A DNA stretch of 64,000 bases from a bacterium (GTDB taxonomy: Bacteria > Patescibacteriota > Dojkabacteria > SC72 > WJKH01), in NCBI GenBank assembly GCA_029547225.1, contig JAKPPS010000056.1, positions 25,356-89,355 of the forward strand, read 5' to 3'. The notes beneath the pieces were generated by a model. The model had not been told where the DNA came from, did no database searches, and was given only the letters and a program-made list of their open reading frames with translations. Position numbers and translations under genes: made by a program. Numbering within the stretch: the first letter of the stretch is position 1; each line of letters begins with the position of its first letter. Positions 9,231 through 42,141 of this stretch are shown in pieces.

Positions 9231-12200
9231 TTAATGGATATTTAGGATGAGTTTTGCTTCTTCATCAGCAACGATTTTAATAGTTTGTTCATTAGTATTT
9301 TTTACTACAACACCATAAACACCCTTTGATACAGCATATCGTAAATACTTTTCATTATCTCCGACTATAGCTACAATTTTTGCTCGGCTTCCTTTCAACT
9401 GTTTAATTATATTATCGAAAAGATTTAATACTGATTCGTCATCCATGACTTCCTTATCCAAAGCAGACATATCAATTATGATACCATCTATGCCAGCTTC
9501 AAATATGCTCTGGGATAATATAATTTCTGAGGATCTTCGTAATACGGCATGTATTTCAAACGAACCACTTCGTCGTAAGCCAGCTGATAAAACCTCTTGC
9601 TTAAATAATTCGACAAATTTTGGATTAACAGGGTTAGCTATCGAAAGAACAACATTACGATCTTTATACACATTCCTAACCTTACGGATAATTGAGAGTG
9701 CCCGTTTAGTAAGTTGTGGTGAGCTCAAATAATGCTTGAGACCTTGTCCCTCACCAGCAATATCCTTGCCACCCTTAAGCGCTTTAAATTTGTTATAACT
9801 GTGCAAACCAAATGTGGCAAAAACTGTTTCTCCACCGACAGAGTCCGCAATCTTATCGATCGTTTGACAGATGTTTTGCGTAAATATCTTTGCTGATTCA
9901 GCATCCATGCTTGCAGGATGCACCCCATACTCGATGAATAGCTTATCCACATCAATATAATTTACACCTGATTTATATATTCTTGTCGCTGTATGAATAT
10001 TACTTGTTATTGTATTATCTTCTTGCTTAGAATCTTGATTCATATGATTGACATTAAAAATCTGACTTTTAGAAACAGTATCGGGTTTTTCAGATGCTTC
10101 ATCTAAATGTTTCTCGTTTAATTCCTCTGATAGAGGAGCTTCAGATTGATATAATGCTTGCTCAGAATACTTTGATAATAGATATACTCCGCCAAGAGAT
10201 CCATCAATCCTTATCTCGTCACCGTTCTCAAGTTGATGTATAAATTTGTTTGCGCCAACAACACAAGGAATACCTTGCTCACGACAAATTATAGCAACAT
10301 CACTTGCCATACCGCCATCTCCTACAATTACTCCGCCACTACTCAAAATAACTGGTTGGTATCCAACAGAATAAATTGGGATAACTAAAATCATGCTTCG
10401 ATTAACTTGCCCGATATCATTTGGAGAAGATGTTGCAACTTTAACTTGACCCGATACAACACCATAACTTGCACCTACAGCCGATCCAATCAAAGTACCA
10501 ACATTTGAAAAGGATTTGCTAATTCGTTCAGAAGCCTTACTAATAATATCTTGAGCATCAGCTACTTCATTTGAAATAGCTGAATCTGAATCAAGAGATG
10601 CAATATTTTGCTCATCAGAACTCTGTTTTAAGTCTGTATTTGTAGTTTCAACATAATCTTTATCAGAAACATTTTGTGTCGACATTTCACTTTTAATGTC
10701 TTCGGCACTTCGCTGATTTTCAGCGAAAATATTAGTATCACCGGCCAAGTCTGATTTAGCTTCAACAGGAGAGATACCCTGCAAAGAAGCACTCTCTTTG
10801 TCCTTTATCTCATTAATCATTTTTTCCAATTGGGCAAAATAATCAACATTGGAATCAAGTTTTTTAGCCATACTACCTTTTATTGCATTAGTATTCTTGC
10901 TGCGAGGAGAAAATATTCCAGCCAGGCCTTTACCTGAAGAAGATTTTTCTAAATCCTTCCCAGAATTTGACTGTTCATTAGCTGTGTCAGCACCGAAAGA
11001 ATCAGTCATAGCTTGTTGATTAACAATTTTTGCTACCTCAGCATCACTTTGACTATCGGTAAGGGCCATTATATCTTTTACTGAAGTAGGCATATCGATA
11101 CTCGATTCATCAGAACCCGTCATAATTGTGTCGACACCTCGGGTTTGATCTGTTATCTCAGTTGAAGATACTAAATTATCTTTAGAAACCTCTTCTTTTA
11201 CGCTATTAAGTTGAGCGATTTGAGACTGCGCACCTGCAATAATATTTTTTTCATGCTCTTGTTTAATTATTTCTGCAGCAAGCGAATTGAAGCCTTCAGT
11301 TTTTACTTCTTCTTTTTCCAATAAGTTTTTATCTATCATCTCAAGAGGTTTGGTTTGTAAAACCCATACATTTCCACTTTCCCAAACCCATTCAACAAGA
11401 TGAGGGGATTTCAATCTATCTTCGATAATCATTGCAACTTTCGCTATATCCTCAATAAATCGATCTTCTAACTTCTGCTGATGATTCCATGATTTTGAGA
11501 TCTGTATTTTCTCTTCCGTACCGAAATGACCATTTTCACGCTTCGGGCTAACTCGTCTAATTTTCATCCAATCTTGAGGAGCAATATGCTTCTCAATTAT
11601 TGCAAGGTCTTTTTTATTTAAAATATATTGATCTGGAGTAAGCTCTCCGTTCGAGATAACATCGCCTAAACCAAATACAGCCTCAACAGTAACCCGATCT
11701 TTAAGGTTGGTAATCGGATCACGAGTGTATGCGACACCAGATACTTCCGACTGAATCATTTTCTGTACCACTACAGACATCTTGAGCTCAGATAATGGTA
11801 ATGAATGTGCCTTTGCATATGCAATAACCTTATCGGTAAAGACTGATTGATAGATAAGTTTGATAGCCTCGAGAAGATTATCAAATCCTTTAACATTTAA
11901 TTCTGTACCGAACACTCCAGAAAAAGATACATCTGGCCGACTTGGGAATACAACTGAACTTCTTACTGAGACCCAAGCATCAGAAAACCCGGATAATCTC
12001 GAGTAAGCTTTTAGTAACTGCTCCTGAATATAATTTTCAAATCGTGCTTTTGAAATCATCTGAGAATATTGCTTTGCATCGATTGACATTGATCCATCCA
12101 ATATTTGCGATATTTTCTTATTGAACGCTTTAAAAAGTAGGGAAGTGTAAACTTCTGGTGAAATAGAAAAAAATGGCGGAATAGGGATATCTATATCATA

Positions 12201-12371
12201 AAGTTCAAATAGACTAAGTCCTTTTCGACCGACATATGATTCATTAACTTCACTCAGAGTAAAATCTTCATAAAAATAAATATCATTCACTATTGTATTG
12301 ATAGGATTTTCTTCAATTTTCTTTACACGTTTTTTGAAAAAAGGCAGATTCATCTTGGCAGCTAAAAACAA
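9231..12371 (-). CDS. PEP synthase / pyruvate phosphate dikinase-like protein with a large internal low-complexity insertion and Asp at the phospho-His position
   Basis: The N-terminal PPDK_N/ATP-grasp blocks are present (GRKGLSLFEL, VSVRSSVVFPSRPDVSFSGVFGTELNV, VVVQKMIQSEVSGVAYTRDP). The mobile-domain block reads GGMASDVAIICREQGIPCVVG, and the C-terminal region is degenerate and TIM-barrel-like. The ATG at 12353 (MNLPFF) is a likely start. Confidence 0.7.
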   Translation of the reverse strand: MFLAAKMNLPFFKKRVKKIEENPINTIVNDIYFYEDFTLSEVNESYVGRKGLSLFELYDIDIPIPPFFSISPEVYTSLLFKAFNKKISQILDGSMSIDAKQYSQMISKARFENYIQEQLLKAYSRLSGFSDAWVSVRSSVVFPSRPDVSFSGVFGTELNVKGFDNLLEAIKLIYQSVFTDKVIAYAKAHSLPLSELKMSVVVQKMIQSEVSGVAYTRDPITNLKDRVTVEAVFGLGDVISNGELTPDQYILNKKDLAIIEKHIAPQDWMKIRRVSPKRENGHFGTEEKIQISKSWNHQQKLEDRFIEDIAKVAMIIEDRLKSPHLVEWVWESGNVWVLQTKPLEMIDKNLLEKEEVKTEGFNSLAAEIIKQEHEKNIIAGAQSQIAQLNSVKEEVSKDNLVSSTEITDQTRGVDTIMTGSDESSIDMPTSVKDIMALTDSQSDAEVAKIVNQQAMTDSFGADTANEQSNSGKDLEKSSSGKGLAGIFSPRSKNTNAIKGSMAKKLDSNVDYFAQLEKMINEIKDKESASLQGISPVEAKSDLAGDTNIFAENQRSAEDIKSEMSTQNVSDKDYVETTNTDLKQSSDEQNIASLDSDSAISNEVADAQDIISKASERISKSFSNVGTLIGSAVGASYGVVSGQVKVATSSPNDIGQVNRSMILVIPIYSVGYQPVILSSGGVIVGDGGMASDVAIICREQGIPCVVGANKFIHQLENGDEIRIDGSLGGVYLLSKYSEQALYQSEAPLSEELNEKHLDEASEKPDTVSKSQIFNVNHMNQDSKQEDNTITSNIHTATRIYKSGVNYIDVDKLFIEYGVHPASMDAESAKIFTQNICQTIDKIADSVGGETVFATFGLHSYNKFKALKGGKDIAGEGQGLKHYLSSPQLTKRALSIIRKVRNVYKDRNVVLSIANPVNPKFVELFKQEVLSAGLRRSGSFEIHAVLRRSSEIILSQSIFEAGIDGIIIDMSALDKEVMDDESVLNLFDNIIKQLKGSRAKIVAIVGDNEKYLRYAVSKGVYGVVVKNTNEQTIKIVADEEAKLILNIH

Positions 12372-12479: not shown

Positions 12480-13685
12480 CTATACTATACCTTTAGCTTT
12501 GAGCTTTTGCAAGTCTAGATAAAATCCTATAAATAAATCTCCAAGTACAAGTACAGGAACTGTCAATAATGCTCCGAGTACTCCAGCAATTGAGTATCCA
12601 AGCATAATCCCTATTAAAACAGCAATCGGTTTGATACCAACAGCTCCACTCATCACTCTTGGAACGATAAGATTATTCTCAAATTGTTGGATCACAACAT
12701 AACCTGCTACGACCAACACCGCATTAATAGGACCATTCCCTATTAGAGCAAATAATATTGCTGGGACAGATGCGATTATTGGTCCAAGATTTGGGACTGA
12801 TTCTAGTAAACCTGCCAATACCGCAAGTGGTAATGCAAATGGCACATTAAGAATTGTTAATAGCAACCATACTAGAAATCCTATTACAAAACTCAACGTT
12901 ATCTGACCAAGAAGCCATTTTCCGAGTTTTTCCTCAACGTTATCAACTAATGCTTTTATTAACTTTCTTTGATCGTCCTTTATAAATCTCATAACAAAAT
13001 AGTTGAGCATCGTATCATGATCTGAGATAATGTAAATCGATAAGAAAAGTGTTGCAACGATAGATAACAGACCACCAAAGAATTCGCTTACTTTTCCAAG
13101 AGTAGATAATATCCCATCAAGTCCCTGAGCGAGAGTAGGTATTATATTACTCGTAAGATTACTTACATATTCATTGATTGCGTTCATGATGCTTTCTCTA
13201 TCGATATTTACAAAAGGCAGGTTGATATTTTCTACAGCATCAACTATTTGCTTTAATATCTCAGGGGCATTATTTACTAAATTGATTAACTGATTGATCA
13301 AAGGTACGAATATTACTCCAATAGAAGCCGAGAAAAGTATAATTGCCAAAAGATAAACAACCAAAATTGCCAACCATTTAGGCCATTTGTGAGAAGTCAA
13401 AAATCTTACAATAGGAAGAAAGGCTGAAGATATAATAAAAGCAAAGAAAAGTACAACTGCCACACCTAACAGCTTATCCCAGAGGAAGAATACTACAACA
13501 GCAATTATCAACATAAGAATAAATTTGGTAGATAACTCGATACGAACAACTTTATCTTCTTTCTTGTTGTCTCGATCATGTACTACTATTTTTGCATCTT
13601 CTTTTTTTGAAACGACATCCGTATTATCGCTCTCTTTCACACTTACTTTATTTTTATTCATTTTTATTTGCATTTCTTTTGCCAT
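12480..13685 (-). CDS. AI-2E (PerM/YhhT) family transporter
   Basis: About 8 TM segments and the family-typical GLLESVPNLGPIIASVPAILFAL block. The N-terminal extension is charged. Confidence 0.75.
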   Translation of the reverse strand: MAKEMQIKMNKNKVSVKESDNTDVVSKKEDAKIVVHDRDNKKEDKVVRIELSTKFILMLIIAVVVFFLWDKLLGVAVVLFFAFIISSAFLPIVRFLTSHKWPKWLAILVVYLLAIILFSASIGVIFVPLINQLINLVNNAPEILKQIVDAVENINLPFVNIDRESIMNAINEYVSNLTSNIIPTLAQGLDGILSTLGKVSEFFGGLLSIVATLFLSIYIISDHDTMLNYFVMRFIKDDQRKLIKALVDNVEEKLGKWLLGQITLSFVIGFLVWLLLTILNVPFALPLAVLAGLLESVPNLGPIIASVPAILFALIGNGPINAVLVVAGYVVIQQFENNLIVPRVMSGAVGIKPIAVLIGIMLGYSIAGVLGALLTVPVLVLGDLFIGFYLDLQKLKAKGIV

Positions 13686-13738
13686 ATTTATATTATACCA
13701 TTTTTCTGGCGGCAGACCAAATTATCAACAATCAGGCG

Positions 13739-14527
13739 CTAATCATCTTCATCCACAGTATTATTCTTATTTTTGATAATATCAAACCAGCTTATGGCAT
13801 CAAACATATTCTGGATAGTAAAGATACCAAATCCTGCACCAAAAAGTGCACCAGTAAGAATCCTTTTCGCTATATTATCAACATAGAGTGAGTATAGAGG
13901 TTCCCTAATAAATGTAAAAATACCATACTCAAGCATTGTTTGAAACACACCATCAAAAGCCATAGGTATCATTAAGGCAACATAAATTAATACTGGTATT
14001 TTTTTCTTAAGTATCCCAAATGCATAAAGTGAATACATCATAAGTGCAGTAAATGCTGTAGTTGAATATAAAGCAGTATCCCTAATACAATAAGCAACTT
14101 TATATCCGATCTGTTCGTTTCCCCAATATGGATATCCAAAATAAAATTCCTCTGCACCATCATACGGTGGATCTGGATTTACCTTCGGTATCTGATGCAT
14201 CTCTTTGAGCTCATCTACAGTGTAAAATTGCACAAGGCTTTCTTCGCCAAACAAGTAAATTGATCTTTCAACTCGCTGATGACAAAGCACATGATATATT
14301 TTGTGAATTGCAACACCTATTTTTGGTGCACCTAATTTGAAACTAATTGGGGCAATAATCGGAAGGGTAGAGTAAACAAATAAGACTATAATAACTACCT
14401 TTATTACAATCAGATATGGGCGATCACCTTTCGCGATCATTTCTTTTATACTTTTCATCAGGCTAATATATTTAAACAAAGTATATTGCAAATAATTCAA
14501 TTCTATTCCATTACAAACAGTTTTCAA
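13739..14527 (-). CDS. DUF2085-like membrane protein
   Basis: The CHQRVERS motif is followed by several TM helices, as I recall for DUF2085. Confidence 0.5.
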   Translation of the reverse strand: MKTVCNGIELNYLQYTLFKYISLMKSIKEMIAKGDRPYLIVIKVVIIVLFVYSTLPIIAPISFKLGAPKIGVAIHKIYHVLCHQRVERSIYLFGEESLVQFYTVDELKEMHQIPKVNPDPPYDGAEEFYFGYPYWGNEQIGYKVAYCIRDTALYSTTAFTALMMYSLYAFGILKKKIPVLIYVALMIPMAFDGVFQTMLEYGIFTFIREPLYSLYVDNIAKRILTGALFGAGFGIFTIQNMFDAISWFDIIKNKNNTVDEDD

Positions 14528-14630
14528 CAGTGCGAGATATCCTGTCCTTCAAAGATTTAGCTGTTTTTCAACCTATACATTCGATATTGAGAAAAAAATC
14601 TAATTCTTCACATATAAAAATTTAAACTAT

Positions 14631-14658
14631 TTGCAAAAAAATAGATATCAATTACAAT
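14631..14658 (+). promoter_or_regulatory. Sigma70-like promoter abutting the start codon of the JAB-like ORF
   Basis: TTGCAA (14631-36), a 16-nt spacer, then TACAAT (14653-58). The ATG at 14667 lies 8 nt after the -10 element. Confidence 0.4.
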
Positions 14659-14666
14659 AAAGTATT

Positions 14667-15458
14667 ATGGCAAATTTTAATGATTTATTAAAGGGTATAG
14701 GCAAATTACTTTTTGGAGGTTCTAAGAGTACTTCATGGACTTACGGTGATTTAAATCGCAAACTAGCCGTATGGAAAGAAAATCGTATTTTCCCTTATCT
14801 TTCAAATCTACCAAAATCGATAAGTTTTAACAAAGATTTCTGGGACCATATTGTGCAAATATACAAGAAAACTCAATCAGATGGATTAGAGCGTTCTATT
14901 TCAATATTTTGGGTTGATGGCGAACTAGTAGTAACTTCTATTGTTACTGGTACGGAGAGTAAAGTAACTTCAAAAGGGGTAGTAAGCGTCAAATATGACA
15001 GAGATAGTAATCCAAAATACTTTATTAAACGAATTTATGTTGATGATAAGGAGTATTCTCATGAGCGACTATATTATGAGAATATACCGAAGAAAACAGA
15101 TCTTAAATATCTGTTTAACCTTCACACGCATCCCCCTCGAGAACAAGGAACGAGATGGTATACAGAAGTCCAAACCGAAAAACTTGCTGGTGCAGATCCA
15201 AGTGCATATTCGTTTTTTTCCGCAACAGATATTAAGTCCCAAGTTAAAACTGGAAGTGCAATATCAGGTCTAGTAACAGATAGATTGTGGATTCTAATTA
15301 GAAGTTCAGAGACACCAAATTATGTAGATTATATTGAGGATAAAGATATGAATGTAGAATTCCTTGTTGATAAGCTACATTTTGCAGTATATGAAGGATA
15401 CTTTTGGGAGTCCCTACACCGTCGACGTGGCAGTATGCTTGATGAAGAGAACGAATAA
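14667..15458 (+). CDS. Hypothetical protein with a possible JAB/MPN (JAMM)-like metalloprotease motif
   Basis: HTHP ... SATD (H-x-H-P ... S-x-x-D), with an unusually long 28-aa spacer and an upstream Glu (GLERS). The N-terminal peptide is amphipathic (LLKGIGKLLFGG). Confidence 0.35.
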   Translation: MANFNDLLKGIGKLLFGGSKSTSWTYGDLNRKLAVWKENRIFPYLSNLPKSISFNKDFWDHIVQIYKKTQSDGLERSISIFWVDGELVVTSIVTGTESKVTSKGVVSVKYDRDSNPKYFIKRIYVDDKEYSHERLYYENIPKKTDLKYLFNLHTHPPREQGTRWYTEVQTEKLAGADPSAYSFFSATDIKSQVKTGSAISGLVTDRLWILIRSSETPNYVDYIEDKDMNVEFLVDKLHFAVYEGYFWESLHRRRGSMLDEENE

Positions 15459-15534
15459 AGCAAGTCAATCACGTTTTATTATTTTCAAGATTTGAAATGA
15501 GTTTTTCCATTAGCAATCTTCTTGCGTATATTTC

Positions 15535-15576
15535 AAAAAAAACTCCCCCGATAACCTAAAGGTTACACTAGGGGAG
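15535..15576 (-). terminator. Rho-independent terminator for the surface-protein gene, between convergent genes
   Basis: The outer stem ctcccc(15543-48)/ggggag(15571-76) encloses an inner stem taacc/ggtta. Read on the minus strand it is followed by a T8 run (A-run 15535-15542 on plus). Confidence 0.55.
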
Positions 15577-15644
15577 AATTAATACTTATATCATTCAATG
15601 CTCTTTCTCAAAGAATAAGTAATAAGATTTCAAAGTTAAATATT

Positions 15645-16658
15645 CTAGTTGCTCTGTTTCTGTCTTTTTAGTTTAAGTGCAACTATTGACATATTTACAC
15701 CTAAAAGTGCCAAGCAAAATATTCCGAAATACATTATTGCATTATTAAGGCCAAGAGCGTTTAAAGCATCTTCTAATACACCTGCTGATGAAGGTAATTC
15801 TGTACTACCATTTCCATTACTTGCAATTGTCGAAGCACCATCGCCATTTAAATCGCCAGATTCATATTTAACCATAATCTTTTTGTCAGCTGTAACAAAA
15901 TTACCTGATTGATCCCAGATTTCTACAACAAATTCATTATCACCCTTTTGAAGTACAATATCCTTGATCTCAAAATTTCCATCACTATCTGCTCTACCAG
16001 TAAAGGTCTGATCACCAGATTTCAAAACCACTAAAGAGTTAGGCTCCGCTTTACCTTTTAATGAATACTCACTACTGTTTGATTCATTATCATATTCAAA
16101 TTCAACAATCTTTGAAGGAGGAGTTGTATCATACTTGGAAATCAATTCTGGAGATTTCTCACTTCGTGATCTAATTACAAATCCTCGAATAGTTGCGACC
16201 TGAAACTTATGATCTCCTTCATTTTTCATCTCATAATTGTATTCATACGTACCATCTTCACTTACCTTAATAGGCTTTCTTTGCAATTTATCATTTACAT
16301 ATACAATAACTTCGTTTGCACCATCAACATATCCCTTGATTGCAATATCTTTTGAGTTAGTTGTAGTAGGAATTTCACTTACAATAGGTATTGGCATATT
16401 TTTGTCGAGTCTTGGAGCGAACCTAGTAACTATTGCAATTATTAAGATACCAAGAAGGACGATGATACCGAAGATTAAAATACCTAAACCAAGAACCTTA
16501 ATAAAAGATTCACCGGAATTATTATCATTTTCAAGCCTTGCTTCGGTTTTTTCGAGCATTGTTTCCTTTATCTCAACTGATTCATTTTTTACATCGTTAA
16601 TGACAGGACTTGTGTACTGTTCTGTTTTAACAATCTTCTTTCTTCCTCTACGAGCCAT
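15645..16658 (-). CDS. Cell-surface protein with Ig-like repeats and a C-terminal sortase-type sorting signal
   Basis: It has an N-terminal TM anchor and two bacterial Ig-like repeats (..GKAEPNSLVVLKSGDQTFTGRADSDGNFEIKDIVLQKGDNEFVVEIWDQSGN). The C-terminus reads ELPSSAG, then a spacer, a hydrophobic stretch (AIMYFGIFCLALLGVNMSIVAL) and a basic tail (KLKRQKQ). Confidence 0.55.
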   Translation of the reverse strand: MARRGRKKIVKTEQYTSPVINDVKNESVEIKETMLEKTEARLENDNNSGESFIKVLGLGILIFGIIVLLGILIIAIVTRFAPRLDKNMPIPIVSEIPTTTNSKDIAIKGYVDGANEVIVYVNDKLQRKPIKVSEDGTYEYNYEMKNEGDHKFQVATIRGFVIRSRSEKSPELISKYDTTPPSKIVEFEYDNESNSSEYSLKGKAEPNSLVVLKSGDQTFTGRADSDGNFEIKDIVLQKGDNEFVVEIWDQSGNFVTADKKIMVKYESGDLNGDGASTIASNGNGSTELPSSAGVLEDALNALGLNNAIMYFGIFCLALLGVNMSIVALKLKRQKQSN

Positions 16659-16862
16659 TATTTTTGAAATAATAATTTATTATACACATAAATATAATCA
16701 ATTTACTCTTTATACATAGGTTTTTCATATGTATAAAATACTTGATAAATAATTGTGCCTTACTACCTGTAGTGTATTACAAAAGGCCAATCTTTGCAAC
16801 AGTATTAATAGATATGATAAAATGATAATAATTAATCTTTCCTTTGTAATAATAAGTTCTAA

Positions 16863-17576
16863 TTGCAATCTATGCTGACTTTTATTAAAAAACTTTTTTC
16901 AATAGTATTACTTATTGTGATATTATGCGGAGTAGGATACATCATATATTATCCTAACAGGGATAAAATCAATATTTTCTTTAATGAGATTGATCCTTAC
17001 AATATCTCTCATAATACTTCCCTTGCTTTTTTGATTGATGTGTCGAGGCAGCAGAATAAAGAAGATTACTTCAAAGCAAGTAATACAAATTCTATTGAAG
17101 AAATAACTCCATCAACACTGGCACTTTATCAAAACGGCGGAAATACAATATATGAGCTTGAGAAATATAATACTTTTTTAGAAATTCCGAGTGCAGATAT
17201 TGCCGGAAAGGTGTTTGACGGTGAAAGCTCATGGACGATGGTAAAAGGTTTTTGGCATTTTCCACTTTCAAGCATGCCGGGTATCGCAGGGAATACAGTA
17301 ATAATAGGTCATAGATATGATAAAATGCCTCCAGCAACAGATACTTTCTTTAATCTCGACAAAGTGAAGATAGGCGATAAAGTGTATATTACACAGAATG
17401 ATGAAAAACTTTCTTTTACTGTTACTGAAACAAAAATCGTCGAAAAAACTAACAGAGAGATTTTAACCCAGACAGATGACTACCGTATCACTATCGTAAC
17501 ATGCCATCCGCTTTGGACAGATGATCAAAGACTCGTGGTAATTGCAAAGCTGGACAAAATTTATAGAAACATTTAA
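16863..17576 (+). CDS. Sortase-family transpeptidase
   Basis: N-terminal TM anchor, catalytic His block VIIGHRYD, Cys block ITIVTCHP (TLxTC-like), and a downstream Arg (QRLVVIAKL). The ATG at 16872 is a possible start. Confidence 0.75.
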   Translation: MQSMLTFIKKLFSIVLLIVILCGVGYIIYYPNRDKINIFFNEIDPYNISHNTSLAFLIDVSRQQNKEDYFKASNTNSIEEITPSTLALYQNGGNTIYELEKYNTFLEIPSADIAGKVFDGESSWTMVKGFWHFPLSSMPGIAGNTVIIGHRYDKMPPATDTFFNLDKVKIGDKVYITQNDEKLSFTVTETKIVEKTNREILTQTDDYRITIVTCHPLWTDDQRLVVIAKLDKIYRNI

Positions 17577-32520: not shown

Positions 32521-33552
32521 TTATTCAGTTTTCAGAGCCAAACCGACAGCTACCGAGAACGAAGGTTTACTCTTAGCTAGAGCACTTTCATATTTGGCAT
32601 CCACTTTGATATTTGTCCAAGGATCTCCTACTTTAGAATTAATATTTAATTGATCTGTCATGTATTTTTCGAGTCCTGGCAACATTGCACCATCACCGTT
32701 AAGCAGACATTCCTGTGGGACGGGTAGGAGAGTACGAGATTTGTAGAATTCCATACCTCTTTGGATCTCAACTAAAATCGAATCCATAACAGGTTTTAGC
32801 GCTTGAGCAACTTTACCTTCCAAAACATCTTCAGCAAGACCATAATTTCTCTTATACTCTTCAGCTTGATTATATTCAAAGCCAAACTTATTAACTATCG
32901 CTTGAGTTAATGCGTCTGAACCGATAGAAATACTCTGAGCAAAAACAAGAAATCCGTTATTCATAATGCTCATATCTGTACTCTGAGCTCCAAAATCAAG
33001 CATAAGTATTTCTTTTATACCAGTCGAACGATACATGGCTCGACCCATTGCAATAGATTCGGTTTCAATAGCTACAGGTTCAAGACCAGCCTTATCAACA
33101 ACACTTGTATAAATATCGATTATTTTTCGTGGTGCTGCGACTATTAAAACTTTATATACAGATCGTTTATCATCATACCCAATTGGTAGATAACTCATCT
33201 GAACCTCTTCAATCGGTAAAGGAATGAGCCTTTTTGCCTCATAAAACACAGCATTTTTAATCTCATCTTCTTTGATTCCACTATATTCCGTAAATCGTGT
33301 AAATACACTAAATTCAGGTAATGCCATAACTACACGTTTCTCTTTGATTTTTGCGGAATCAAAAAGCGCCTTAAGAGAATCTGTAAGTTTTTGTTGATGT
33401 GACGCATCTTCACTATTGATGACTCCCTGAGGAGTAACTTGGCTACCAAAATTTACTAAAGTTGGCTTATTTGAAGAAATATCCTCTAGCTGAACTGCTT
33501 TTACAGAATGACTTCCGAAATCTAAGCCTACATGATCGGGCAATTGTGACAT
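32521..33552 (-). CDS. pilM: Type IV pilus assembly protein PilM (actin-like ATPase fold)
   Basis: GLDFGSHSVKAVQL at the N-terminus, MLDFGAQSTDMSI, and LNGDGAMLPGLEKYM, typical of PilM. Confidence 0.85.
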   Translation of the reverse strand: MSQLPDHVGLDFGSHSVKAVQLEDISSNKPTLVNFGSQVTPQGVINSEDASHQQKLTDSLKALFDSAKIKEKRVVMALPEFSVFTRFTEYSGIKEDEIKNAVFYEAKRLIPLPIEEVQMSYLPIGYDDKRSVYKVLIVAAPRKIIDIYTSVVDKAGLEPVAIETESIAMGRAMYRSTGIKEILMLDFGAQSTDMSIMNNGFLVFAQSISIGSDALTQAIVNKFGFEYNQAEEYKRNYGLAEDVLEGKVAQALKPVMDSILVEIQRGMEFYKSRTLLPVPQECLLNGDGAMLPGLEKYMTDQLNINSKVGDPWTNIKVDAKYESALAKSKPSFSVAVGLALKTE

Positions 33553-33830
33553 TTTTGGACAGTAATAAAAAATTAAAATAGTCTACTATGACAGAAACCC
33601 TTTACTGATAAGGTCGCGTCTATCATTAGTGAATCTATATAAAAGAACAAACTATTTCCCTTTGCTTAGTATAATCCATTTAACAAACTTAATAAAGAAC
33701 CTAGAGTATTTTTCATTTTTTTTACTCAAAGGTTAAATTATTAATAATAACGGCGTCAATAATTCTGGATTTTGAATTATTGATAGAAGACAAAAGAATG
33801 AAAATAGTTTGGCTACGTTTCAATACATGA

Positions 33831-36800
33831 TTAATAAGGTTTATACCCAAGTTCTTTTACATATGCATCAGAATCAACACCAAAGAATTTACTAGAAATA
33901 TAAAGATATCTTGGATCATAAATAACAACAAATGATGGATAGCTATTATTATCAAGCAGCTGTAAGGATCTTTGCCACAACAAGCCATTAGAATCTCCGC
34001 CCAAAGAATAAACCGCACCTTGGATTTTTATTCCGTCTACAGTTACCTGACCAATATCTGTACGTGGGAAGATTATATGTCCTCCAGCAATAAAGACTCC
34101 GTTTAAACTGTCAAAACTAGGTACACCACCTGAACTTTTATATGTTCCTTCTTCGATAGAAATATTTCCTCCAGCTAAGAATATGCAACCATTGATCTTT
34201 GGGGTATCTGTTTTGGTAATGTCAGGGTTAATTGTGATATTACCATTTGTTTTGATCAGCGCTTGACGATTACAATTTATTGCATTCACATCTAAATTTC
34301 CACTCGCGTTTATTACACATGCATTCGATTCGCTTAAACAGATATTTGAGACATCCCCACTAATCGATCCCACACTTAAGTTATATGAGTCAATAGTCCC
34401 ACTTGCGATTTCTTTATTTACTTGAGAGAGTAGTTGTTGATAATTAATAGACGTATTCGAATACGATACAAGTGTATACGGATCATATTTATTACCTCGA
34501 ACAACATTTTGAACAATAGTTGAGCCGTTTATTAAGCCTAATTCAGTAGTTATTTGTGTATTTGAACTGTTTGAACCATATGGATCAGCAAAATAAGTTA
34601 TAGCAGGATCTGGTACTTTAATAGGGCTTTCAACATCTCCAGCAGAGTAGAGTAACCCACCTTTTGTAGCGAACCAACTTTCTCCAATTGCAAGATTATT
34701 ACTATTATCAGTAAAAGAACCCATGTTACAGGCATTGTCAGTAGCTTTGATTTTGACTCCAAGATTTCCTTCGTTAATAACTCCTATGTTTAACTGCTGA
34801 GTACCAGAATTAACAGCTCCCTTTGCCCATATTGGAACAGGGTTAAAATCTTCACTTCCAGTCGAAGCATTAATATACGGAACAGTCACTGAAACATGAG
34901 GTTCAGCTGAAACTTCGGTAACAGTATGCTCATTTGGTTCATATGAGCTTCCAAACAAACCTACCAAACCAATAGATGACTTAACTCCAGAATTTGTATC
35001 AGTTAGGCTCCACTGGTACGATACAGTATTTTTATCTACAATCGTTGGGCCTGTTATAGTCGATGTTGGAGCAGTAAAATCAATTCGATAATCACCCTTA
35101 TCGTTCCATGTTGTTTGTCCAGGACCTGATGCAGTATCCCTTGCAAAACCAAGTAAATTTGTTACACCCTCCGGCATATTTGCGCCAAAACCAACAGTAA
35201 AAACATAAGTACATGTGTTACCTGAACAATCTGTACTAGCTAATTTCCAGCGGTTTTGCGAGCTATCTTGGCTTTCACTCGGATTCCATATTTCTGAGCT
35301 ATTATATTGATCATTATTTGAAGATGCTGACGAGAGTGCTGACATGATCATACCGGTACTTCCTGCACTCATACCAGTATTAGAAGGTAACTCCCAGTCA
35401 TAATTCCACGTATCATTACTAAAATCGTTAAGATATGTTAACCCATATAAAGCCATACTATTATTTCCGACAGCATTAGCTGAAGGAAGAGCTGTCGTAG
35501 TTGAACCCGTTGCAGTAAGGTTACGATTTATTGTAAACATTTGCCCATTAACTTTTATTGAATCTATATAAAGATTTCGATCCCCAGAAGGCACTGTAGA
35601 TACATAATAATCATTAGGAAAACGTATAGTTATTTGATTGGGCCGTAAAGCTGTATTATGAGTATATTGATATACACCTCCACCAGAAGTGATACCAGTA
35701 GAATTAGCAGCCCCAGTATTAACAGATTTTATAGTTTTCACGAGGTTACCATCTATCAGTATCTCCATATTAGCAAGCTGAGAAGCAGTACCCGAATTAA
35801 GGGTTGCTGCATAAATTTTGATTTCCGTTCCCTTGTGAGCTAGAGCATGTACCGATGTTTTAAGATCACTCCCCAAGGATGTAGTGTCATCGATCCACAG
35901 CCCTGCCCACAAAATATCACTAGGCCCATCATTATCCGTAACTGTAACAGTAAAATCTCTCGGATTATTATCATTACTTGCACCGCAATCTGTTCCATTA
36001 TCATAATTGGGTAACGAGCCAGAAAGACCACTATTAGGTGAGACTGTAACAGTTGGCTTACTGTTGATTTTAAAATATCCAATCAACTGATTTGAGCACA
36101 TGCCATCTGTACAGATAAACGAATCAGTACATTGGCGTAGTGGGGCATACTGTGTAGTCACTGTATATGATCGTCCTTCAGTTTTATTTATACTTGACCA
36201 GTTTGGAGAATAATACCTTAACCGAGTCCCCTCAGATGCTTCACTATCCAAACCCGCAACAGCAGTTAAACTTGTGCCTACTCCTGTGACGGCATAAGAA
36301 GCTAATAAACCACGAGAGTTTGTAGGAAATTGAGAGCTATTTGCGACATCAACCATGAAATATAGATTAGTTGCTAATTCTTCTGCATTTATTAGTGTCG
36401 GTTTTGAGGGATCGGTCGACAATTTTATACAAGCTTCTTGATTTGGACTACATATCGAAACATATTCTGGTGTTGGCGCTTTTGTGACTGTAGGATTTAC
36501 ATAACAAGCAGCTCCTGATGTTGTACAGGGACCACAATCGTTCTGTCCACTGCAAGATGACGAAACTGGGCTGCATCCTGCCCAACCACTCTGATATCCC
36601 AAGGGTTGAGTGAAGCTATATCCCGCACTACATGTTGGAGTACATGCTTCACACCCATTAGAATATGTTCCAGAACAACATGGTGTTGTATTGTCACATG
36701 GAGGACATAATACATCTACTTTGTCACCTGGAGCCCAACAGTAGTCACTTCCATTATCCTTACTCGTGCCACATCTATTTGGAACAGGAGATGAAAGAGT

Positions 36801-37436
36801 ACAATCTAATTTCTCACAACCTCCTGTTCCCTCATTTCTTCCAAGAAGACAATAATTACTTTCACCACAATCACCGACACAGGCACAGCTATATTCTGTA
36901 CGTGTCTTTACCCAACTACATCCTTTGTTAGAAGCTCTTTGACATTGATCCTTTTCTTTAATGTTTTTACAAACTGTTCCTGCTTTACAAAATGGAGCTT
37001 TCCAAGTACAGCCATCTGTTTTTTTACATTCTGGTTCCGTTGTTGCTCCAATACATGAATCGCCACAATAACCTTTTTCAATTACATTCCATTTACAAGC
37101 TTCATAATTTTCACAATCATTCTTATTTGTAAAATTTTTACACTTTGGACCAAAAATATTAATATCTTCTGACCTATACCAACAATTACCATCTTCACAC
37201 CCTGCATTAACATCCATAACAAACAAATCAGATATGATATTTCTAGAAGAATTGCTAGCTATATCAGTAGATAAGAACTTTATATCCGAAGAAGTAAAAT
37301 CAATAGAATTTGCGGGTTTATTAAAATAGCTATTTAGAAATAAGGAATAGAAGACTGACAGTAGTACAACAATTGCAGTAAAAAGGGTAAAAAACAGTTT
37401 ATTTCCAATTGTAATTTTTAATTTTCGTTTATTCAT
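33831..37436 (-). CDS. Giant exported orphan protein (1201 aa) with a Cys-rich N-terminal module; candidate pilus-associated adhesin
   Basis: It has an N-terminal signal anchor (LFFTLFTAIVVLLSVFYSLFL) and about 35 Cys in residues 75-345. A possible carbohydrate-binding-like segment contains DRNLYIDSIKVNG, and the C-terminus is Gly/Asn-rich and beta-helix-like. The gene sits inside the T4P operon. Confidence 0.65.
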   Translation of the reverse strand: MNKRKLKITIGNKLFFTLFTAIVVLLSVFYSLFLNSYFNKPANSIDFTSSDIKFLSTDIASNSSRNIISDLFVMDVNAGCEDGNCWYRSEDINIFGPKCKNFTNKNDCENYEACKWNVIEKGYCGDSCIGATTEPECKKTDGCTWKAPFCKAGTVCKNIKEKDQCQRASNKGCSWVKTRTEYSCACVGDCGESNYCLLGRNEGTGGCEKLDCTLSSPVPNRCGTSKDNGSDYCWAPGDKVDVLCPPCDNTTPCCSGTYSNGCEACTPTCSAGYSFTQPLGYQSGWAGCSPVSSSCSGQNDCGPCTTSGAACYVNPTVTKAPTPEYVSICSPNQEACIKLSTDPSKPTLINAEELATNLYFMVDVANSSQFPTNSRGLLASYAVTGVGTSLTAVAGLDSEASEGTRLRYYSPNWSSINKTEGRSYTVTTQYAPLRQCTDSFICTDGMCSNQLIGYFKINSKPTVTVSPNSGLSGSLPNYDNGTDCGASNDNNPRDFTVTVTDNDGPSDILWAGLWIDDTTSLGSDLKTSVHALAHKGTEIKIYAATLNSGTASQLANMEILIDGNLVKTIKSVNTGAANSTGITSGGGVYQYTHNTALRPNQITIRFPNDYYVSTVPSGDRNLYIDSIKVNGQMFTINRNLTATGSTTTALPSANAVGNNSMALYGLTYLNDFSNDTWNYDWELPSNTGMSAGSTGMIMSALSSASSNNDQYNSSEIWNPSESQDSSQNRWKLASTDCSGNTCTYVFTVGFGANMPEGVTNLLGFARDTASGPGQTTWNDKGDYRIDFTAPTSTITGPTIVDKNTVSYQWSLTDTNSGVKSSIGLVGLFGSSYEPNEHTVTEVSAEPHVSVTVPYINASTGSEDFNPVPIWAKGAVNSGTQQLNIGVINEGNLGVKIKATDNACNMGSFTDNSNNLAIGESWFATKGGLLYSAGDVESPIKVPDPAITYFADPYGSNSSNTQITTELGLINGSTIVQNVVRGNKYDPYTLVSYSNTSINYQQLLSQVNKEIASGTIDSYNLSVGSISGDVSNICLSESNACVINASGNLDVNAINCNRQALIKTNGNITINPDITKTDTPKINGCIFLAGGNISIEEGTYKSSGGVPSFDSLNGVFIAGGHIIFPRTDIGQVTVDGIKIQGAVYSLGGDSNGLLWQRSLQLLDNNSYPSFVVIYDPRYLYISSKFFGVDSDAYVKELGYKPY

Positions 37437-37477
37437 AATACTCTATAGATCTTTATAAAACTAAGACTTCTACACAA

Positions 37478-39097
37478 TCAATCAATAATATAAAATAATG
37501 AACTTTGAGTAAGTTTTATTAGATATTGTGACTCATCCTTTTCGTAGTACAAATACTCATCTGGTTCAATAAGCCATAAAGTGTTTGATTCGATACTTCC
37601 ATCATCTGCATAAGAATTGTTATTTCGGTTTAATTCTGTAGTAAAAGCATACCATAATATTTCCGAGATTTCATTTTCTTCAAAAAGAATATTGCAATTC
37701 TTTACTGATTCTTCTTTTACATTAACTTCTTGCGGACTACTTGCATTGATTTCTCTATCGGACAAGTCAACTACTGCATTAAATATGCATTGATTCAAAC
37801 CCAAAGGAAAACCAAATTTATTCATCACTGATAAGGCTCTGCACAAATTGTTATCTTGTTTCGTGAAGCTCTCAGCTTCTTGCTGGTCATCTTGAGAAAT
37901 ATTTTTTGAGTCAGAGTACTCGAGGAGCTTGATAAATAAATCTTCTGAGGCTTTTCGTCCCCAATAAGATTCTCCATCTGACCACACATTACCCAAGTTA
38001 TTTACCGTATCCATCGGATCATTTAATAGATCCTGATTATCACACGTAGGATTACTTTTTTGCTTACAGATTGAAGACATTGAGGTAAAATAGTTTGTAA
38101 GAGTACTGCATTTCTCGCCACACTTCTCTGATTCGGACAAGCTCAAATCTAATAAAGTACATTCATATCTTCGATCATTACTTTTGTTAACAGTATAATT
38201 CTCGGCGCTAAAAACTGATGGGAGACCTTCCAATATTTCCAATGCTTTGCTGACATAATCACTTTTTTCTTCTAATTCTGAATTTGTATTAACATATTTA
38301 ATTAGAAATAATGAGTTTAGAAAGATAGTATACGGATCTTCTGACTCGGCATAATCTTTCAAAACAATATTATTGTTTTCACCATTTAATAAGAATAAAT
38401 CGTTCTTTGGGAGAGTCAAAGTCAGGCTATCATATTTCAAAATATTTTTATCGATTTGATACAAAGAATGAAGAAATCCGACATATCGATCAGCTGGCAT
38501 TTCCCCTTTAGCAATCTCAGATTCTTTAGTTTTATCGATATTATTTAAACTAATTTGGTAGTTTTCTGCTTCAAGGAAATAATCCTTGTTAAAAAACACT
38601 TTTTTTATGTAATCAATAAATTTCGGTTTATTTAAAGTGTTTTCAGATTGTAACAACCGAGGTCCATACACAATAGAATCTGTATTATCAAGAGAAATAT
38701 TTATTTTCTCGATTGGTAATAGGACTACATCTTGAACAATAACTTCTGAATCCAACTTTTCTAATGATTTTGAATAGTATTCAACTTTAATATTTTCTCC
38801 AGAATATGTAGCTGATTTAACATAAATATTCTTCCCATAAGTAAGTCTACATAGCTCTTTTTCTGAACCATCATAAATGGCAGTCAACAAAGGTAGCCTG
38901 AATTCATCGTGTGAAAAAGAAGTGTTTATCAAAGTAGCTTTATCACAATAGTTCCAATTTTTATAGCTAGTAAAAGAAATAATAAGAAAAATCGCAATCA
39001 ATAGAAAGGGTATAAGTAAAAAAAATAGCCAAGAATTCTTCCAATTACTTTGAGATTTATTCGTGTTATCGTTCAGAGACATAAGAGCAGTATTCAA
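37478..39097 (-). CDS. Exported or membrane-anchored orphan protein (539 aa) in the T4P operon
   Basis: N-terminal TM (WLFFLLIPFLLIAIFLIISF). No recognised domain. Its stop lies 41 nt upstream of the start of the 1201-aa gene. Confidence 0.6.
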   Translation of the reverse strand: MNTALMSLNDNTNKSQSNWKNSWLFFLLIPFLLIAIFLIISFTSYKNWNYCDKATLINTSFSHDEFRLPLLTAIYDGSEKELCRLTYGKNIYVKSATYSGENIKVEYYSKSLEKLDSEVIVQDVVLLPIEKINISLDNTDSIVYGPRLLQSENTLNKPKFIDYIKKVFFNKDYFLEAENYQISLNNIDKTKESEIAKGEMPADRYVGFLHSLYQIDKNILKYDSLTLTLPKNDLFLLNGENNNIVLKDYAESEDPYTIFLNSLFLIKYVNTNSELEEKSDYVSKALEILEGLPSVFSAENYTVNKSNDRRYECTLLDLSLSESEKCGEKCSTLTNYFTSMSSICKQKSNPTCDNQDLLNDPMDTVNNLGNVWSDGESYWGRKASEDLFIKLLEYSDSKNISQDDQQEAESFTKQDNNLCRALSVMNKFGFPLGLNQCIFNAVVDLSDREINASSPQEVNVKEESVKNCNILFEENEISEILWYAFTTELNRNNNSYADDGSIESNTLWLIEPDEYLYYEKDESQYLIKLTQSSLFYIID

Positions 39098-39158
39098 ATA
39101 TAAAAAACAGTATTACTGGACAAAACAAATTACTATCTTAAAAATCTTGTTATCAGAT

Positions 39159-39548
39159 TTACTTGCTTCCTAGATATTTCTCAATATTACTAATCAATTC
39201 CTCGGAAGAGATTTCTGTTTTGACAAAATACTCTGAAGCACCTAAAGTCAAGCATTCTTTAACAACTTTATCACTTACCATATTGGTTAAAATCACTACA
39301 GGTACACCATCATATTGATCCGGATGAGATTTGATTTGTCTCAATACTTCAATACCATCAATACCTGGCATCATAAGATCTAGCAATACTACTGCGACTG
39401 AGGATTTATTCTCTTCGATAAGCTTTAAACCTTTATATCCATCCGTAGCACCATATACCGTTGCTCCAGTTGACTCAATAACTTCAGTATAAGAGTCAAG
39501 CAAATCTTTCTCATCTTCAATAATAATCACAACTTTATTTGGATCCAT
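39159..39548 (-). CDS. Single-domain response regulator receiver (CheY/PilH-like)
   Basis: The receiver residues are in order: acidic pocket (IIIEDEKD), phospho-acceptor context VVLLDLMMPGIDG, Thr (VVILTNM) and Lys (YFVKT). There is no output domain. Confidence 0.85.
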   Translation of the reverse strand: MDPNKVVIIIEDEKDLLDSYTEVIESTGATVYGATDGYKGLKLIEENKSSVAVVLLDLMMPGIDGIEVLRQIKSHPDQYDGVPVVILTNMVSDKVVKECLTLGASEYFVKTEISSEELISNIEKYLGSK

Positions 39549-39678
39549 ATATTACAATATTTAATTTATCCTTTTCTACATAGTAAATATAATTATCTTA
39601 CAAGTCAATACTCTTTCCAAAAACATTAAACTCAAAAATCCTAGCAAGACATTAAATAAAACATGTATCAACACGGGT

Positions 39679-40638
39679 CTATTCAGTATAAGTCAAATCT
39701 CCATATCCATTATAAAGTACAAAATCAAAAAGTGATGGAGCAGAAGGCACCAGATCTTTGTAATAATAATTGGCTCTATAAGTACCACCACAATTCGTTG
39801 AAGCAACAACGATAACTTTAGGATCGAAGAAAATACAAGTAGACTCTATCTTAACATTCATATCACTCCCCAGAGCTTTTATCCGAACAGAGATGGTGTT
39901 TCCTGTACCCAAACTGTTTGTAACAACTGGCAGATTATATCCAGTGCTTTGATTGTACGAAATCCAGGATCCGCTCCAGTTTGTATCTCCATTAATTTTT
40001 AGGCCAACAATATTATCTGGTCCATTCTCAACGACAGAAATAACCTCCCCATTTACATCTCTACCACCTTCAAACCTTGAAATTATTGCCCCAGAAGATG
40101 TTTGTAGAGTAGGGGTCAATTTAATATTAGCTGTACATCCAGGCGTACTTACTGTACTCTTCACATTTAAATTGAGAGTCTCATCTTTCGAAATATTAAA
40201 TCCATCCTGATCAGAAGTCTGTTTAAAACAAAGTTCAGCAGTGGTATTTGTTTCGCCGGGACAATTTAAAGATTCTTTTACGATAACAGGATCAATACCA
40301 TCAAACTGAGTTAGATTGCCACCTGCAAAACAACATTCTTTACCTGAACCGAATTCGGGACATTTATCAACAATATCGTCAATTTCTATTGACTTTGAGA
40401 TCTCTACTAAAGAATCCGATACTTCAATTGCACCAGAAGAAAGGGTTTCCTCAGCAACTCGAGCATTTTGTTTCAAAGTCCTCGATACTAGTGCCAAAGC
40501 AATAAGTGCACAAATAAGTACAATAATTAGTACAAGAGCTAGTGCTTGAGATTCATACCTAGTATCATTTATTGATTTTCCTGGAAGCTTTCTGGCACAA
40601 GAATTACCTTTTAGTGTATAAAGAATGTCTTTAATCAT
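39679..40638 (-). CDS. PilX-like minor pilin candidate
   Basis: The N-terminal hydrophobic helix ESQALALVLIIVLICALIALALV resembles a PilX_N segment. The gene sits last in the minor-pilin string. No canonical G/F-x-x-x-E site is present. Confidence 0.4.
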   Translation of the reverse strand: MIKDILYTLKGNSCARKLPGKSINDTRYESQALALVLIIVLICALIALALVSRTLKQNARVAEETLSSGAIEVSDSLVEISKSIEIDDIVDKCPEFGSGKECCFAGGNLTQFDGIDPVIVKESLNCPGETNTTAELCFKQTSDQDGFNISKDETLNLNVKSTVSTPGCTANIKLTPTLQTSSGAIISRFEGGRDVNGEVISVVENGPDNIVGLKINGDTNWSGSWISYNQSTGYNLPVVTNSLGTGNTISVRIKALGSDMNVKIESTCIFFDPKVIVVASTNCGGTYRANYYYKDLVPSAPSLFDFVLYNGYGDLTYTE

Positions 40639-40810
40639 ATTTTAATATAACATATATATTATTTTATTTCGACAAATTGACACAAAAGTTTATATTCTAG
40701 AAATGCCACAAACAATATATTTCTCTTGTTCCTAAGTTCTGTACTTTTTCTACAATAGCTTATGGTATTTATAGAATTCAGTTTTTTATATCAATTTTCC
40801 TAGAAAACTT

Positions 40811-41533: not shown

Positions 41534-41559
41534 TATCGATTTATTTTAATCAAACACAC

Positions 41560-42141
41560 TTAATTAAGTTTTAAAACAACATTTTTCTCCTGATCGGAAA
41601 TTAAACATGATTTTGTAAAAGCTACTTTGCGACAATCAATCCTCCCAGAATATATTACACCTGTTACAATACCAGAATCCCCATCATATGAATTGATACA
41701 AAAACTTGCAAAATCACCTTCTTCTAAATCATCTACAATTGCTTTCGTACGACACTTATTATCTCGATTTTTCAACGAAGCATAATCACAAATCGGAGAG
41801 CTAAATGAAGGGCTCGAAATATCTCCCTGAATTCGATAACACATTTTCCAATCATCCCCCTCATTAAATGGAAAGTACGATGGCTCATCAAGTTCTTTTG
41901 AGTTTTCTAAATCAGCAAGCCTTGTTACTTTTGCTGATACGCCTTCCATTTCCCTCACAAGCCTCTCAGTTACTTCAATACGATCCATATTCATATAAGT
42001 ATCTTGAGCTAGAGACAGAAAAACAACTCCAGCAACGGATGCAAGAAAAAGAGCTAAAAGTGCTTCAACGAGACCTTGAGCTTTATAGCTAGTGAGTTCA
42101 TTATTATCATTTTTTATTCTTTTTGTATTACTTTTATTCAT
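41560..42141 (-). CDS. PilV-like minor pilin candidate
   Basis: YKA/QGLVEALLALFLASVAGVVFLSL has Glu at +5 if cleaved after Ala. Confidence 0.45.
   Translation of the reverse strand: MNKSNTKRIKNDNNELTSYKAQGLVEALLALFLASVAGVVFLSLAQDTYMNMDRIEVTERLVREMEGVSAKVTRLADLENSKELDEPSYFPFNEGDDWKMCYRIQGDISSPSFSSPICDYASLKNRDNKCRTKAIVDDLEEGDFASFCINSYDGDSGIVTGVIYSGRIDCRKVAFTKSCLISDQEKNVVLKLN

Follow-up and report, generated by a model that had tools for sequence, protein, structure and literature searches.

A stretch of DNA from a member of the Dojkabacteria (64,000 nucleotides of contig JAKPPS010000056.1; here called the window) carries on its minus strand a gene whose product resembles phosphoenolpyruvate (PEP) synthase, PpsA, and pyruvate phosphate dikinase, PPDK. 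Inspection of the letters alone (the sequence-only reading) had noted an Asp in place of the catalytic phospho-His and a large insertion in this protein, and the gene was therefore compared with homologues, curated profiles, and solved structures. The open reading frame (ORF) begins at a TTG codon at 12369-12371 and would encode 1046 amino acids (aa). The ATG at 12351-12353 is the likelier start, however, as it gives a protein of 1040 aa, the length of a 99% identical database protein (P0001). The features of the gene are as follows.

9231-12371, minus strand: PpsA-like gene, with its stop codon at 9231-9233
11337-12251, minus strand: ATP-grasp nucleotide-binding domain (PPDK_N), aa 41-345, in which K50, R137, T156, E327 and Q339 are kept
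10512-11336, minus strand: linker and lineage-specific insertion, aa 346-620, between the ATP-grasp and swivel domains, mostly disordered and fast-evolving
10176-10499, minus strand: swivel domain (PEP-utilizers mobile domain), aa 625-732
10254-10316, minus strand: phospho-carrier loop motif GGMASDVAIICREQGIPCVVG, aa 686-706
10299-10301, minus strand: GAT codon of Asp691, at the catalytic phospho-His position
9987-10175, minus strand: second disordered linker, aa 733-795, from the swivel domain to the TIM barrel
9234-9986, minus strand: C-terminal TIM barrel, aa 796-1046, a homologue of the PpsA PEP-binding domain without its PEP/pyruvate ligands
9945-9953, minus strand: D807-V-D809, in place of the canonical R-x-E (GLLRAE, the Arg of which is a ligand in the PEP/pyruvate site)

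The three domains were recognized by profile, by structure, or by both. Pfam matched PPDK_N at aa 45-351 (2e-61) and the PEP-utilizers mobile domain at aa 659-727 (1e-13) of the window protein, hereafter the query. The second of these profiles, PF00391, scored 51.1 bits against a cut-off of 23.1, which places the swivel domain by homology in the PEP-utilising enzyme superfamily, and its profile matches include PPDK, the pyruvate kinase C-domain, and enzyme I. The Pfam profile of the C-terminal PEP-binding domain, PF02896, did not match the query, but homology of the barrel was supported both by profile (domain E value of 2.6e-20 to 8a8e, the PpsA of Pyrococcus furiosus) and by fold. An AlphaFold2 model of the query, run with 114 homologues, contained three confident domains at aa 31-345, 625-732, and 796-1042, each with a predicted local distance difference test score (pLDDT) of about 90. 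The top Foldseek matches of that model were Neisseria meningitidis PpsA, rifampin phosphotransferase (RPH), and PPDK, and the model barrel superposed on the PEP-binding domains of 8a8e and 9dae with template modelling scores of 0.73 and 0.69 and a root mean square deviation of about 3.5 Å. We conclude that the query has the three-domain architecture of PpsA (PPDK_N ATP-grasp, swivel, and PEP-utilizers_C TIM barrel), as the sequence-only reading had proposed when it called the protein PpsA/PPDK-like.

An aspartate at the phospho-histidine position

To place Asp691, the query was aligned with solved structures. In a phmmer search of the PDB, D691 aligned with the catalytic His of P. furiosus PpsA (8a8e, GGRTSHAAIVSRELGIPCVVG), S. 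marinus PpsA (9dae), and Listeria RPH (5fbs), and the GGMASDVAIICREQGIPCVVG block matched GGRTSHAAIVSRELGIPCVVG column for column. Thus, the earlier placement of the Asp codon within the swivel signature was exact, and the block around the missing His is indeed kept. The loop GG-x-T-[SC]-H, which supplies the phospho-His intermediate characteristic of the superfamily and has its His in 120/120 canonical PpsA proteins of the candidate phyla radiation (CPR), has no His in the query. The sole His of the query swivel domain is H712, which is not conserved across the relatives described below, and there is therefore no alternative His for the catalytic position.

To determine whether the substitution was confined to one strain, a homologue search was performed over 5.8 billion proteins. 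The search returned 405 matches, the best 120 of which were 841-1063 aa long and were named Dojkabacteria or candidate division WS6 by their sources. When the query and these 120 closest proteins were aligned with MAFFT, position 691 was Asp in 121/121 sequences, within the pattern GG-[LIVM]-[TA]-S-D. When each GTDB species was represented by one genome, at least 556 species-level genomes were found to encode a relative of the protein. Residues were counted in the 80 best loci, which were labelled almost entirely as Dojkabacteria, WS6, or generic Patescibacteria (taxon labels were taken from the genome scan and two further homologue searches). Across these loci, residue 691 was Asp in 75, Glu in two, Asn in two, and Ala in one, and Asp was specified by both of its codons (GAT in 62 and GAC in 10). 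The sequence-only reading would have been overturned by a different His at the catalytic position or by orthologs that retain His; neither was found, and the H-to-D replacement, which it had wished to see checked in orthologs, is conserved rather than strain specific.

In a neighbor-joining tree built from profile-aligned columns, the proteins formed a single block of about 120 leaves, here called the Asp type. The few variant lineages were nested within the block and inherited: Glu occurs in two sister species (L077 and L079), Ala in two divergent sisters (L072 and P0130, at a Kimura distance of 0.65), and Asn in L007 (identical to P0125) and L010. Dojkabacteria are also the source of an Asp-type subfamily of shorter proteins, about 740 aa in length. 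Databases differ in what they call the family: the NCBI pipeline does not apply the name PpsA, giving "PEP/pyruvate-binding domain-containing protein" instead, and JGI/IMG labels the proteins "pyruvate, water dikinase" or "phosphoenolpyruvate synthase/pyruvate phosphate dikinase."

Catalytic ligands, selection and the interdomain insertion

Residues of the PEP/pyruvate site were compared with a control set of 120 canonical PpsA proteins from other CPR lineages. These cluster around P0140, which at 544 bits is the nearest His-bearing relative by family profile score. Within the control set, H691, R807, E809, R853, D856, and D970 (query numbering) were each present in 120/120 proteins and R876, E945, and N969 in 119/120, whereas the Asp type differed as listed here.

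Position: canonical CPR PpsA; Asp type; query
691: H; D; D
807: R; D; D
809: E; D/E; D
853: R; S/T; T
856: D; S; L
876: R; variable; Q
945: E; D/E; R
969: N; P; S
970: D; R; A

The catalytic Cys column, which is only approximately aligned, holds Ile or Val in the Asp type and V1000 in the query. Thus, none of the barrel elements that bind PEP/pyruvate and Mg (R-x-E, RTLD, WRG, MIExP, TND, and the catalytic Cys) was found in the query, the lineage of which departs even from the Asp-type consensus at 945, 969, and 970. Polar residues on the catalytic face of the barrel are 69-83% conserved in the family, and the query lineage departs from these as well. Consistent with the absence of a PF02896 match, we conclude that the C-terminal PEP-binding motifs, which had been described as degenerate, have had their canonical ligands replaced.

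The ATP-grasp domain gave the opposite result. The ATP/Mg ligands were near-invariant in the Asp type, with K50 and R137 each in 85/85 sequences, T156 in 84/85, E327 in 82/82, and Q339 in 81/82, and the query has them all; the canonical R341 is Lys across the family. The phosphate end of the site was nevertheless altered family-wide. GGKG is changed to GRKG (G49R), and the canonical loop over the ATP phosphates, SSATAEDLP..SFAGQ, is replaced by SSVVFP....VSFSGxF. Moreover, the domain contains a second family-specific residue besides R49, His297 (codon at 11481-11483, in the motif S-W-[SN]-H-x-Q-K-L), which is present in 114/114 Asp-type proteins and is His in 0% of the 120 canonical proteins. 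In the swivel loop, S690 was found in 80/80 loci and T689 in 75/80, with Ala at 689 in the query and its close relatives. Variants at 691 were examined for changes elsewhere in the protein. The Ala lineage (L072 and P0130) and the Asn-bearing L010 have intact ORFs and keep every ATP-site ligand. In two single cases other residues changed together with 691: D691N occurs with T156V and Q339E of the ATP site in L007, and D691A occurs with D809A and H818L in L072.

Selection was measured as dN/dS by the Nei-Gojobori method in ten independent orthologue pairs. The ratio was 0.02-0.08 in the ATP-grasp domain, 0-0.08 in the swivel domain, 0.02-0.07 in the C-terminal barrel, and 0.07-0.37 in the second linker. 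In agreement, regional identities between the query and a 72-79% identical relative (P0002) were 94% in the ATP-grasp domain, 85% in the swivel domain, 85% in the barrel, 47% in the insertion, and 36% in the second linker. These values indicate strong purifying selection on all three domains, each of which would thus be functional in some sense, and the gene is neither decaying nor a sequencing artefact. Loss of the His and of the PEP-site ligands from a fold that is kept under purifying selection is the pattern of a pseudoenzyme, but the ATP-site ligands are kept. Hence, the word should fit only the PEP-synthase activity, as the predicted ATP site does not look dead.

The sequence-only reading had also described an insertion of about 275 aa, rich in Ser, Asp, Glu, and Gln, that splits the ATP-grasp from the swivel domain. 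A split of that size is present (aa 346-620), although not all of it is insertion. The spacing between the two domains is about 10 residues in canonical PpsA, typically about 74 in the Asp type, 99-186 in other lineages, and 277-287 in the group of the query, which itself has 277; interdomain tethers from 56 to 277 aa long are tolerated. The family-wide linker of about 74 aa is helical, modelled as a helical hairpin in a compact orthologue (P0100, 847 aa), and so only about 200 aa of the segment in the query are lineage specific. In composition, the segment is 14.5% Ser, 9.5% Asp, 9.1% Glu, 9.1% Lys, 9.1% Ala, and 5.8% Gln and is net acidic, with 51 Asp and Glu against 29 Lys and Arg; Ser and the acidic residues are enriched as described, whereas Gln is only marginally so and Lys is abundant too. 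Residues 393-604 (pLDDT of about 30) and 734-790 were modelled with very low confidence, and the insertion holds a few islands conserved with P0002. Tandem Repeats Finder detected no tandem repeats anywhere in the gene, and a repeat expansion as the source of the insertion was therefore rejected.

Possible functions of the Asp-type protein

Comparison with characterised systems placed the Asp type nearest to archaeal-type PpsA (EC 2.7.9.2), the best match to the family profile across all three domains (E values of 5.5e-105 for 8a8e and 4.3e-90 for 9dae). The two share domain order and ATP/Mg ligands. They differ in that the Asp type has Asp for His and D-x-D for R-x-E, has lost the RTLD, WRG, TND, and Cys motifs, has replaced the "SSATAED" loop, and has linkers of 74 to 277 aa and about 56 aa where archaeal-type PpsA has about 10 aa. 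An archaeal-type 24-mer was considered and rejected, as the Asp type has Ile or Leu at the position of the Fe-binding Met by which the P. furiosus PPSA 24-mer is tethered. The canonical CPR PpsA clade (P0140/P0271, from WWE3, Microgenomates, Gottesmanbacteria, and one Dojkabacteria-labelled metagenome-assembled genome) likewise has the same architecture and ATP-site ligands but retains the His and every PEP/pyruvate ligand at 99-100%, matches PF02896 strongly, and is named phosphoenolpyruvate synthase by NCBI. Homology of the ATP-grasp and swivel domains also extends to RPH (5fbs and 5hv1), PigC/RedH, and HpeI (9goj). RPH has a different domain order, with a rifampin-binding domain instead of the TIM barrel; the query has a central swivel domain followed by a barrel, has no catalytic His, and scored 160.1 bits against a cut-off of 999 for the RPH profile NF041857. 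RPH and the PigC/RedH-type dikinases show that the scaffold can be redirected to non-pyruvate acceptors, but to our knowledge all characterised members (PpsA, PPDK, enzyme I, RPH, and PigC/RedH) use the swivel His.

The PpsA equivalog profiles scored the query at less than half of their cut-offs (258.8 versus 598 bits for NF005057 and 253.2 versus 739.75 bits for TIGR01418). As the phospho-His, the PEP/pyruvate ligands, and the curated scores all fail, the Asp type, although by homology a member of the PEP-utilising superfamily nearest to archaeal-type PpsA, should not be filed as PEP synthase. With His changed to Asp and the PEP/pyruvate ligands replaced, the protein cannot convert pyruvate and ATP to PEP by the known mechanism. 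We conclude that the gene is very probably the Dojkabacteria-wide orthologue of a PpsA-descended three-domain protein in which the folds and ATP/Mg ligands were kept and the His and PEP ligands were replaced, and which is not a pyruvate, water dikinase. The earlier suggestion of "a pseudoenzyme or repurposed protein" holds up, given the low equivalog scores and the purifying selection on every domain, and the comparisons specify it further: the protein is a functional, repurposed descendant of PpsA rather than a PEP synthase.

One way in which such a protein could work is as a nucleotide-dependent switch or ATPase that contains a fixed swivel carboxylate, and we favor this mechanism at a probability of roughly 0.4. 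The N-domain would still bind, and probably turn over, Mg-ATP, given that the residues for binding Mg (E327 and Q339) and phosphate (K50 and R137) are fixed. The swivel loop, GG-x-[T/A]-S-D, would present a constant carboxylate at a helix N terminus, the site usually taken by the phospho-His. There, the carboxylate would be a built-in negative charge, serving as a phospho-His mimic or as a ligand of Mg or phosphate, and not a transferable carrier. The barrel may be kept for structure, oligomerisation, or partner binding, and the long disordered insertion would have been tolerated as the lengthening of an interdomain tether that was long already. Tolerance of long tethers and the only moderate conservation of the catalytic face of the barrel support a fixed carboxylate, and the Ala and Asn (L010) lineages with intact ATP sites argue against an obligatory acyl-phosphate on Asp. 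There is precedent for the concept, if not for the fold or size, which are unrelated: Crh, a Bacillus paralogue of HPr with Gln15, lacks the phospho-His and is kept for a regulatory, non-phosphocarrier role, and engineered His-to-Asp HPr has been used as a phospho-His mimic.

Several observations weigh against a fixed carboxylate. Conservation of Asp at 94%, together with Glu in two species, is stronger than a helix N-cap needs. The invariant S690, the near-invariant T689, and the family-invariant G49R beside the phosphate-binding Lys would fit a loop that handles phosphate. Moreover, the co-changes in L007 and L072 hint that Asp691 works with both other domains, as a carrier would, and that genomes of about 1 Mb have retained a protein of 850 aa suggests that it does more than serve as a passive scaffold. 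Finally, the arrangement of the domains was not modelled confidently, with predicted template modelling scores of 0.42 for the query and 0.45 for P0100.

These points lead to an alternative in which Asp691 is a swivelling phospho-aspartate carrier that attacks ATP to form an acyl-(pyro)phosphate. The swivel domain would then take this group to the remodelled barrel, and there the phosphate would be passed to water or to a non-pyruvate acceptor by D807, D809, and H818 with Mg2+. Ordinary ATP-grasp ligases form acyl-phosphates on carboxylates, and a carrier would account for the near-invariant ATP/Mg ligands, for an acidic residue at 691 in 77/80 loci (96%) despite varied synonymous codons, for the positive charge that R49 adds next to K50, and for the retention of three domains and both tethers at a dN/dS (ω) of about 0.05. 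The single-case co-changes, D691N with changes in the ATP site and D691A with D809A and H818L, fit as well. A carrier is harder to reconcile with the Ala lineage and the Asn of L010, with a barrel face that has lost all phosphate-binding Arg and has few invariant polar residues, and with a query that itself lacks D945, P969, and R970 of the family. Matches in Pfam and the PDB were all of the PpsA type, with no homology to the aspartyl-phosphate folds (receiver, HAD, or P-type ATPase). Within the PEP-utilising superfamily, we know of no precedent for the Asp. Nor was a description of an Asp-type PpsA found in the open-access literature (full text, on Dojkabacteria/WS6, PEP synthase/PPDK, and pseudoenzymes). 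We consider an Asp carrier unlikely on balance. Slightly more doubtful is its extended form, the first PEP-utilising-type enzyme with a swivelling aspartyl (acyl-)phosphate, served by a retuned ATP-grasp site (G49R, R341K, and the new phosphate loop) and perhaps by an acceptor linked to the AI-2E permease encoded next door.

The phosphoryl group could also have moved to Ser690, Thr689, or His297, with Asp691 merely assisting. The constancy of S690 and T689 and the restriction of His297 to the Asp type would suit such a relocation, and Thr-440, within the T-S-H triad, has been argued in a preprint to be the residue at which P. furiosus PpsA is phosphorylated (10.1101/2022.08.11.503304). Against it, position 689 is Ala in the query and its close relatives, and the pyruvate acceptor site is gone regardless. 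In addition, phospho-Ser/Thr esters are poor phosphoryl donors, and we regard a relocated carrier as quite improbable. Somewhat less improbable, though still a long way from likely, is an ATP-dependent module that regulates the neighboring AI-2E permease or phosphorylates its cargo. In 73/77 loci, in which the proteins are about 40-55% identical, the permease gene is the next gene upstream and has the same orientation, and the gap of 108 nucleotides in the window contains no terminator-like site. By contrast, the subfamily of about 740 aa has MutS downstream and no AI-2E gene upstream, four loci have lost the permease gene, and a sortase, a Big_6-type protein, and MutS are syntenic too, so that the order may reflect collinear genomes; for AI-2E family proteins, we know of no physical or functional link. 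Lastly, an ordinary PEP synthase or PPDK in which the Asp arose by sequencing error, strain mutation, or pseudogene decay would agree with the three-domain PpsA fold and the JGI/IMG label. It is refuted by the comparative data, as Asp is present in 121/121 nearest proteins and 75/80 loci through both codons, each domain has an ω of about 0.05, the PEP/pyruvate ligands that 99-100% of the 120 canonical proteins share are all replaced, and the NCBIfam scores are far too low.

Metabolic reconstructions of CPR bacteria use PEP synthase as a stand-in for the often-missing pyruvate kinase (PMC7304191). For the Asp-type gene of Dojkabacteria, that substitution would be wrong, and in the lower glycolysis described for Dojkabacteria, which is fed by nucleosides and RuBisCO (PMC9868632), the step from PEP to pyruvate would need another enzyme. 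More generally, at least 556 species would constitute a natural experiment in which a phospho-His became a carboxylate and the acceptor site was dismantled while the ATP/Mg ligands stayed fixed. Either the superfamily would have gained a new phosphotransfer chemistry, or the proteins would be a clear-cut case of an ATP-binding "pseudo-dikinase." A protein of 850-1050 aa that almost every one of these genomes encodes, at a genome size of about 1 Mb, likely matters to Dojkabacteria.

Gene neighborhood and related observations

Two genes precede the PpsA-like gene on the same strand.

12480-13685, minus strand: AI-2E family permease gene, immediately upstream and 108 nucleotides from the TTG
13739-14527, minus strand: DUF2085 membrane protein gene, upstream of the permease gene in the conserved order

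The order at 12480-17576 recurs in loci L001, L003, L005-L084, and L086 and consists of a divergent sortase gene followed by genes for a Big_6/Glucodextran_B-like protein, a DUF2085 or YibE_F protein, the AI-2E permease, and the PpsA-like protein. The count of 73/77 for AI-2E adjacency refers to species-level loci with enough flanking sequence. The gene after the PpsA-like gene encodes MutS in L001, L003, L086, and L088 and, in convergent orientation, TyrRS in the window. Because the sortase, Big_6-type, and MutS genes are syntenic as well, the conserved order may reflect genome collinearity, and the functional link to AI-2E was downgraded on the evidence of the short subfamily, which keeps MutS downstream without the adjacency. 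A scan for promoters and terminators around the gene gave counts near those of shuffled controls, and neither the PpsA-like protein nor its two upstream neighbors matched PADLOC-DB defence systems. No glycolytic gene was present among the 41 annotated of the 48 ORFs of at least 150 aa in the window.

Whereas Asp-type genes have envelope and housekeeping genes as neighbors, P0140 adjoins enolase fragments and a glucose-6-phosphate isomerase gene. At that locus (L085, 9658-10590), enolase was called as fragments of 59, 67, 32, and 46 aa, of which the 59- and 67-aa fragments are weak Enolase_N matches, suggesting frameshifts or assembly errors; a cupin-type glucose-6-phosphate isomerase gene and an AI-2E permease gene follow. 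As one Dojkabacteria-labelled metagenome-assembled genome encodes a canonical PpsA (P0271), the Asp type may be a paralogue and not the sole homologue in the Dojkabacteria.

Other PpsA-like proteins also depart from the canonical pattern. Clusters of about 750-930 aa, including P0142, P0143, P0146, P0148, P0151, P0153, P0157, P0177, P0198, P0239, and P0247, carry, where the phospho-His would be, one of Y, F, S, E, K, R, P, Q, or I. The ATP-site residues are retained in many of these clusters, and part of the PEP-site residues in some. Loss of the carrier His thus seems to have been repeated within the superfamily. A different group, including P0165 (2309 aa), P0166 (2648 aa), P0176, P0182, P0183, and P0227, contains three to six tandem swivel domains, each with its His (GG-x-T-C-H-AAI), joined to at least one ATP-grasp domain, an architecture that we do not recognize. 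In P0164, P0206, P0214, P0240, and P0255, stretches of about 280-420 aa split the swivel domain at the catalytic loop (GGxTC ... [S]HAAIVSRELG), and the junction in P0255 reads GGSTC-FSGDTKILT. Inteins are known in archaeal PEP synthase, and the split loops look like an intein beside the catalytic His.

Elsewhere in the window, a GyrA homologue of 1025 aa is encoded at 57322-60399 on the plus strand. DNA_topoisoIV matches it from residue 153 and in two stretches, suggesting an N-terminal extension, an internal insertion, or both. The minus-strand region at 32521-51111 contains several ORFs without a Pfam match and type IV pilus genes for PilM, a T2SSF platform protein, and a PilB-type T2SSE ATPase (619 aa). 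It also encodes another T2SSE ATPase, of 1028 aa, about 670 of which form an N-terminal extension unmatched in Pfam, and a 1201-aa protein with a CBM60 module.

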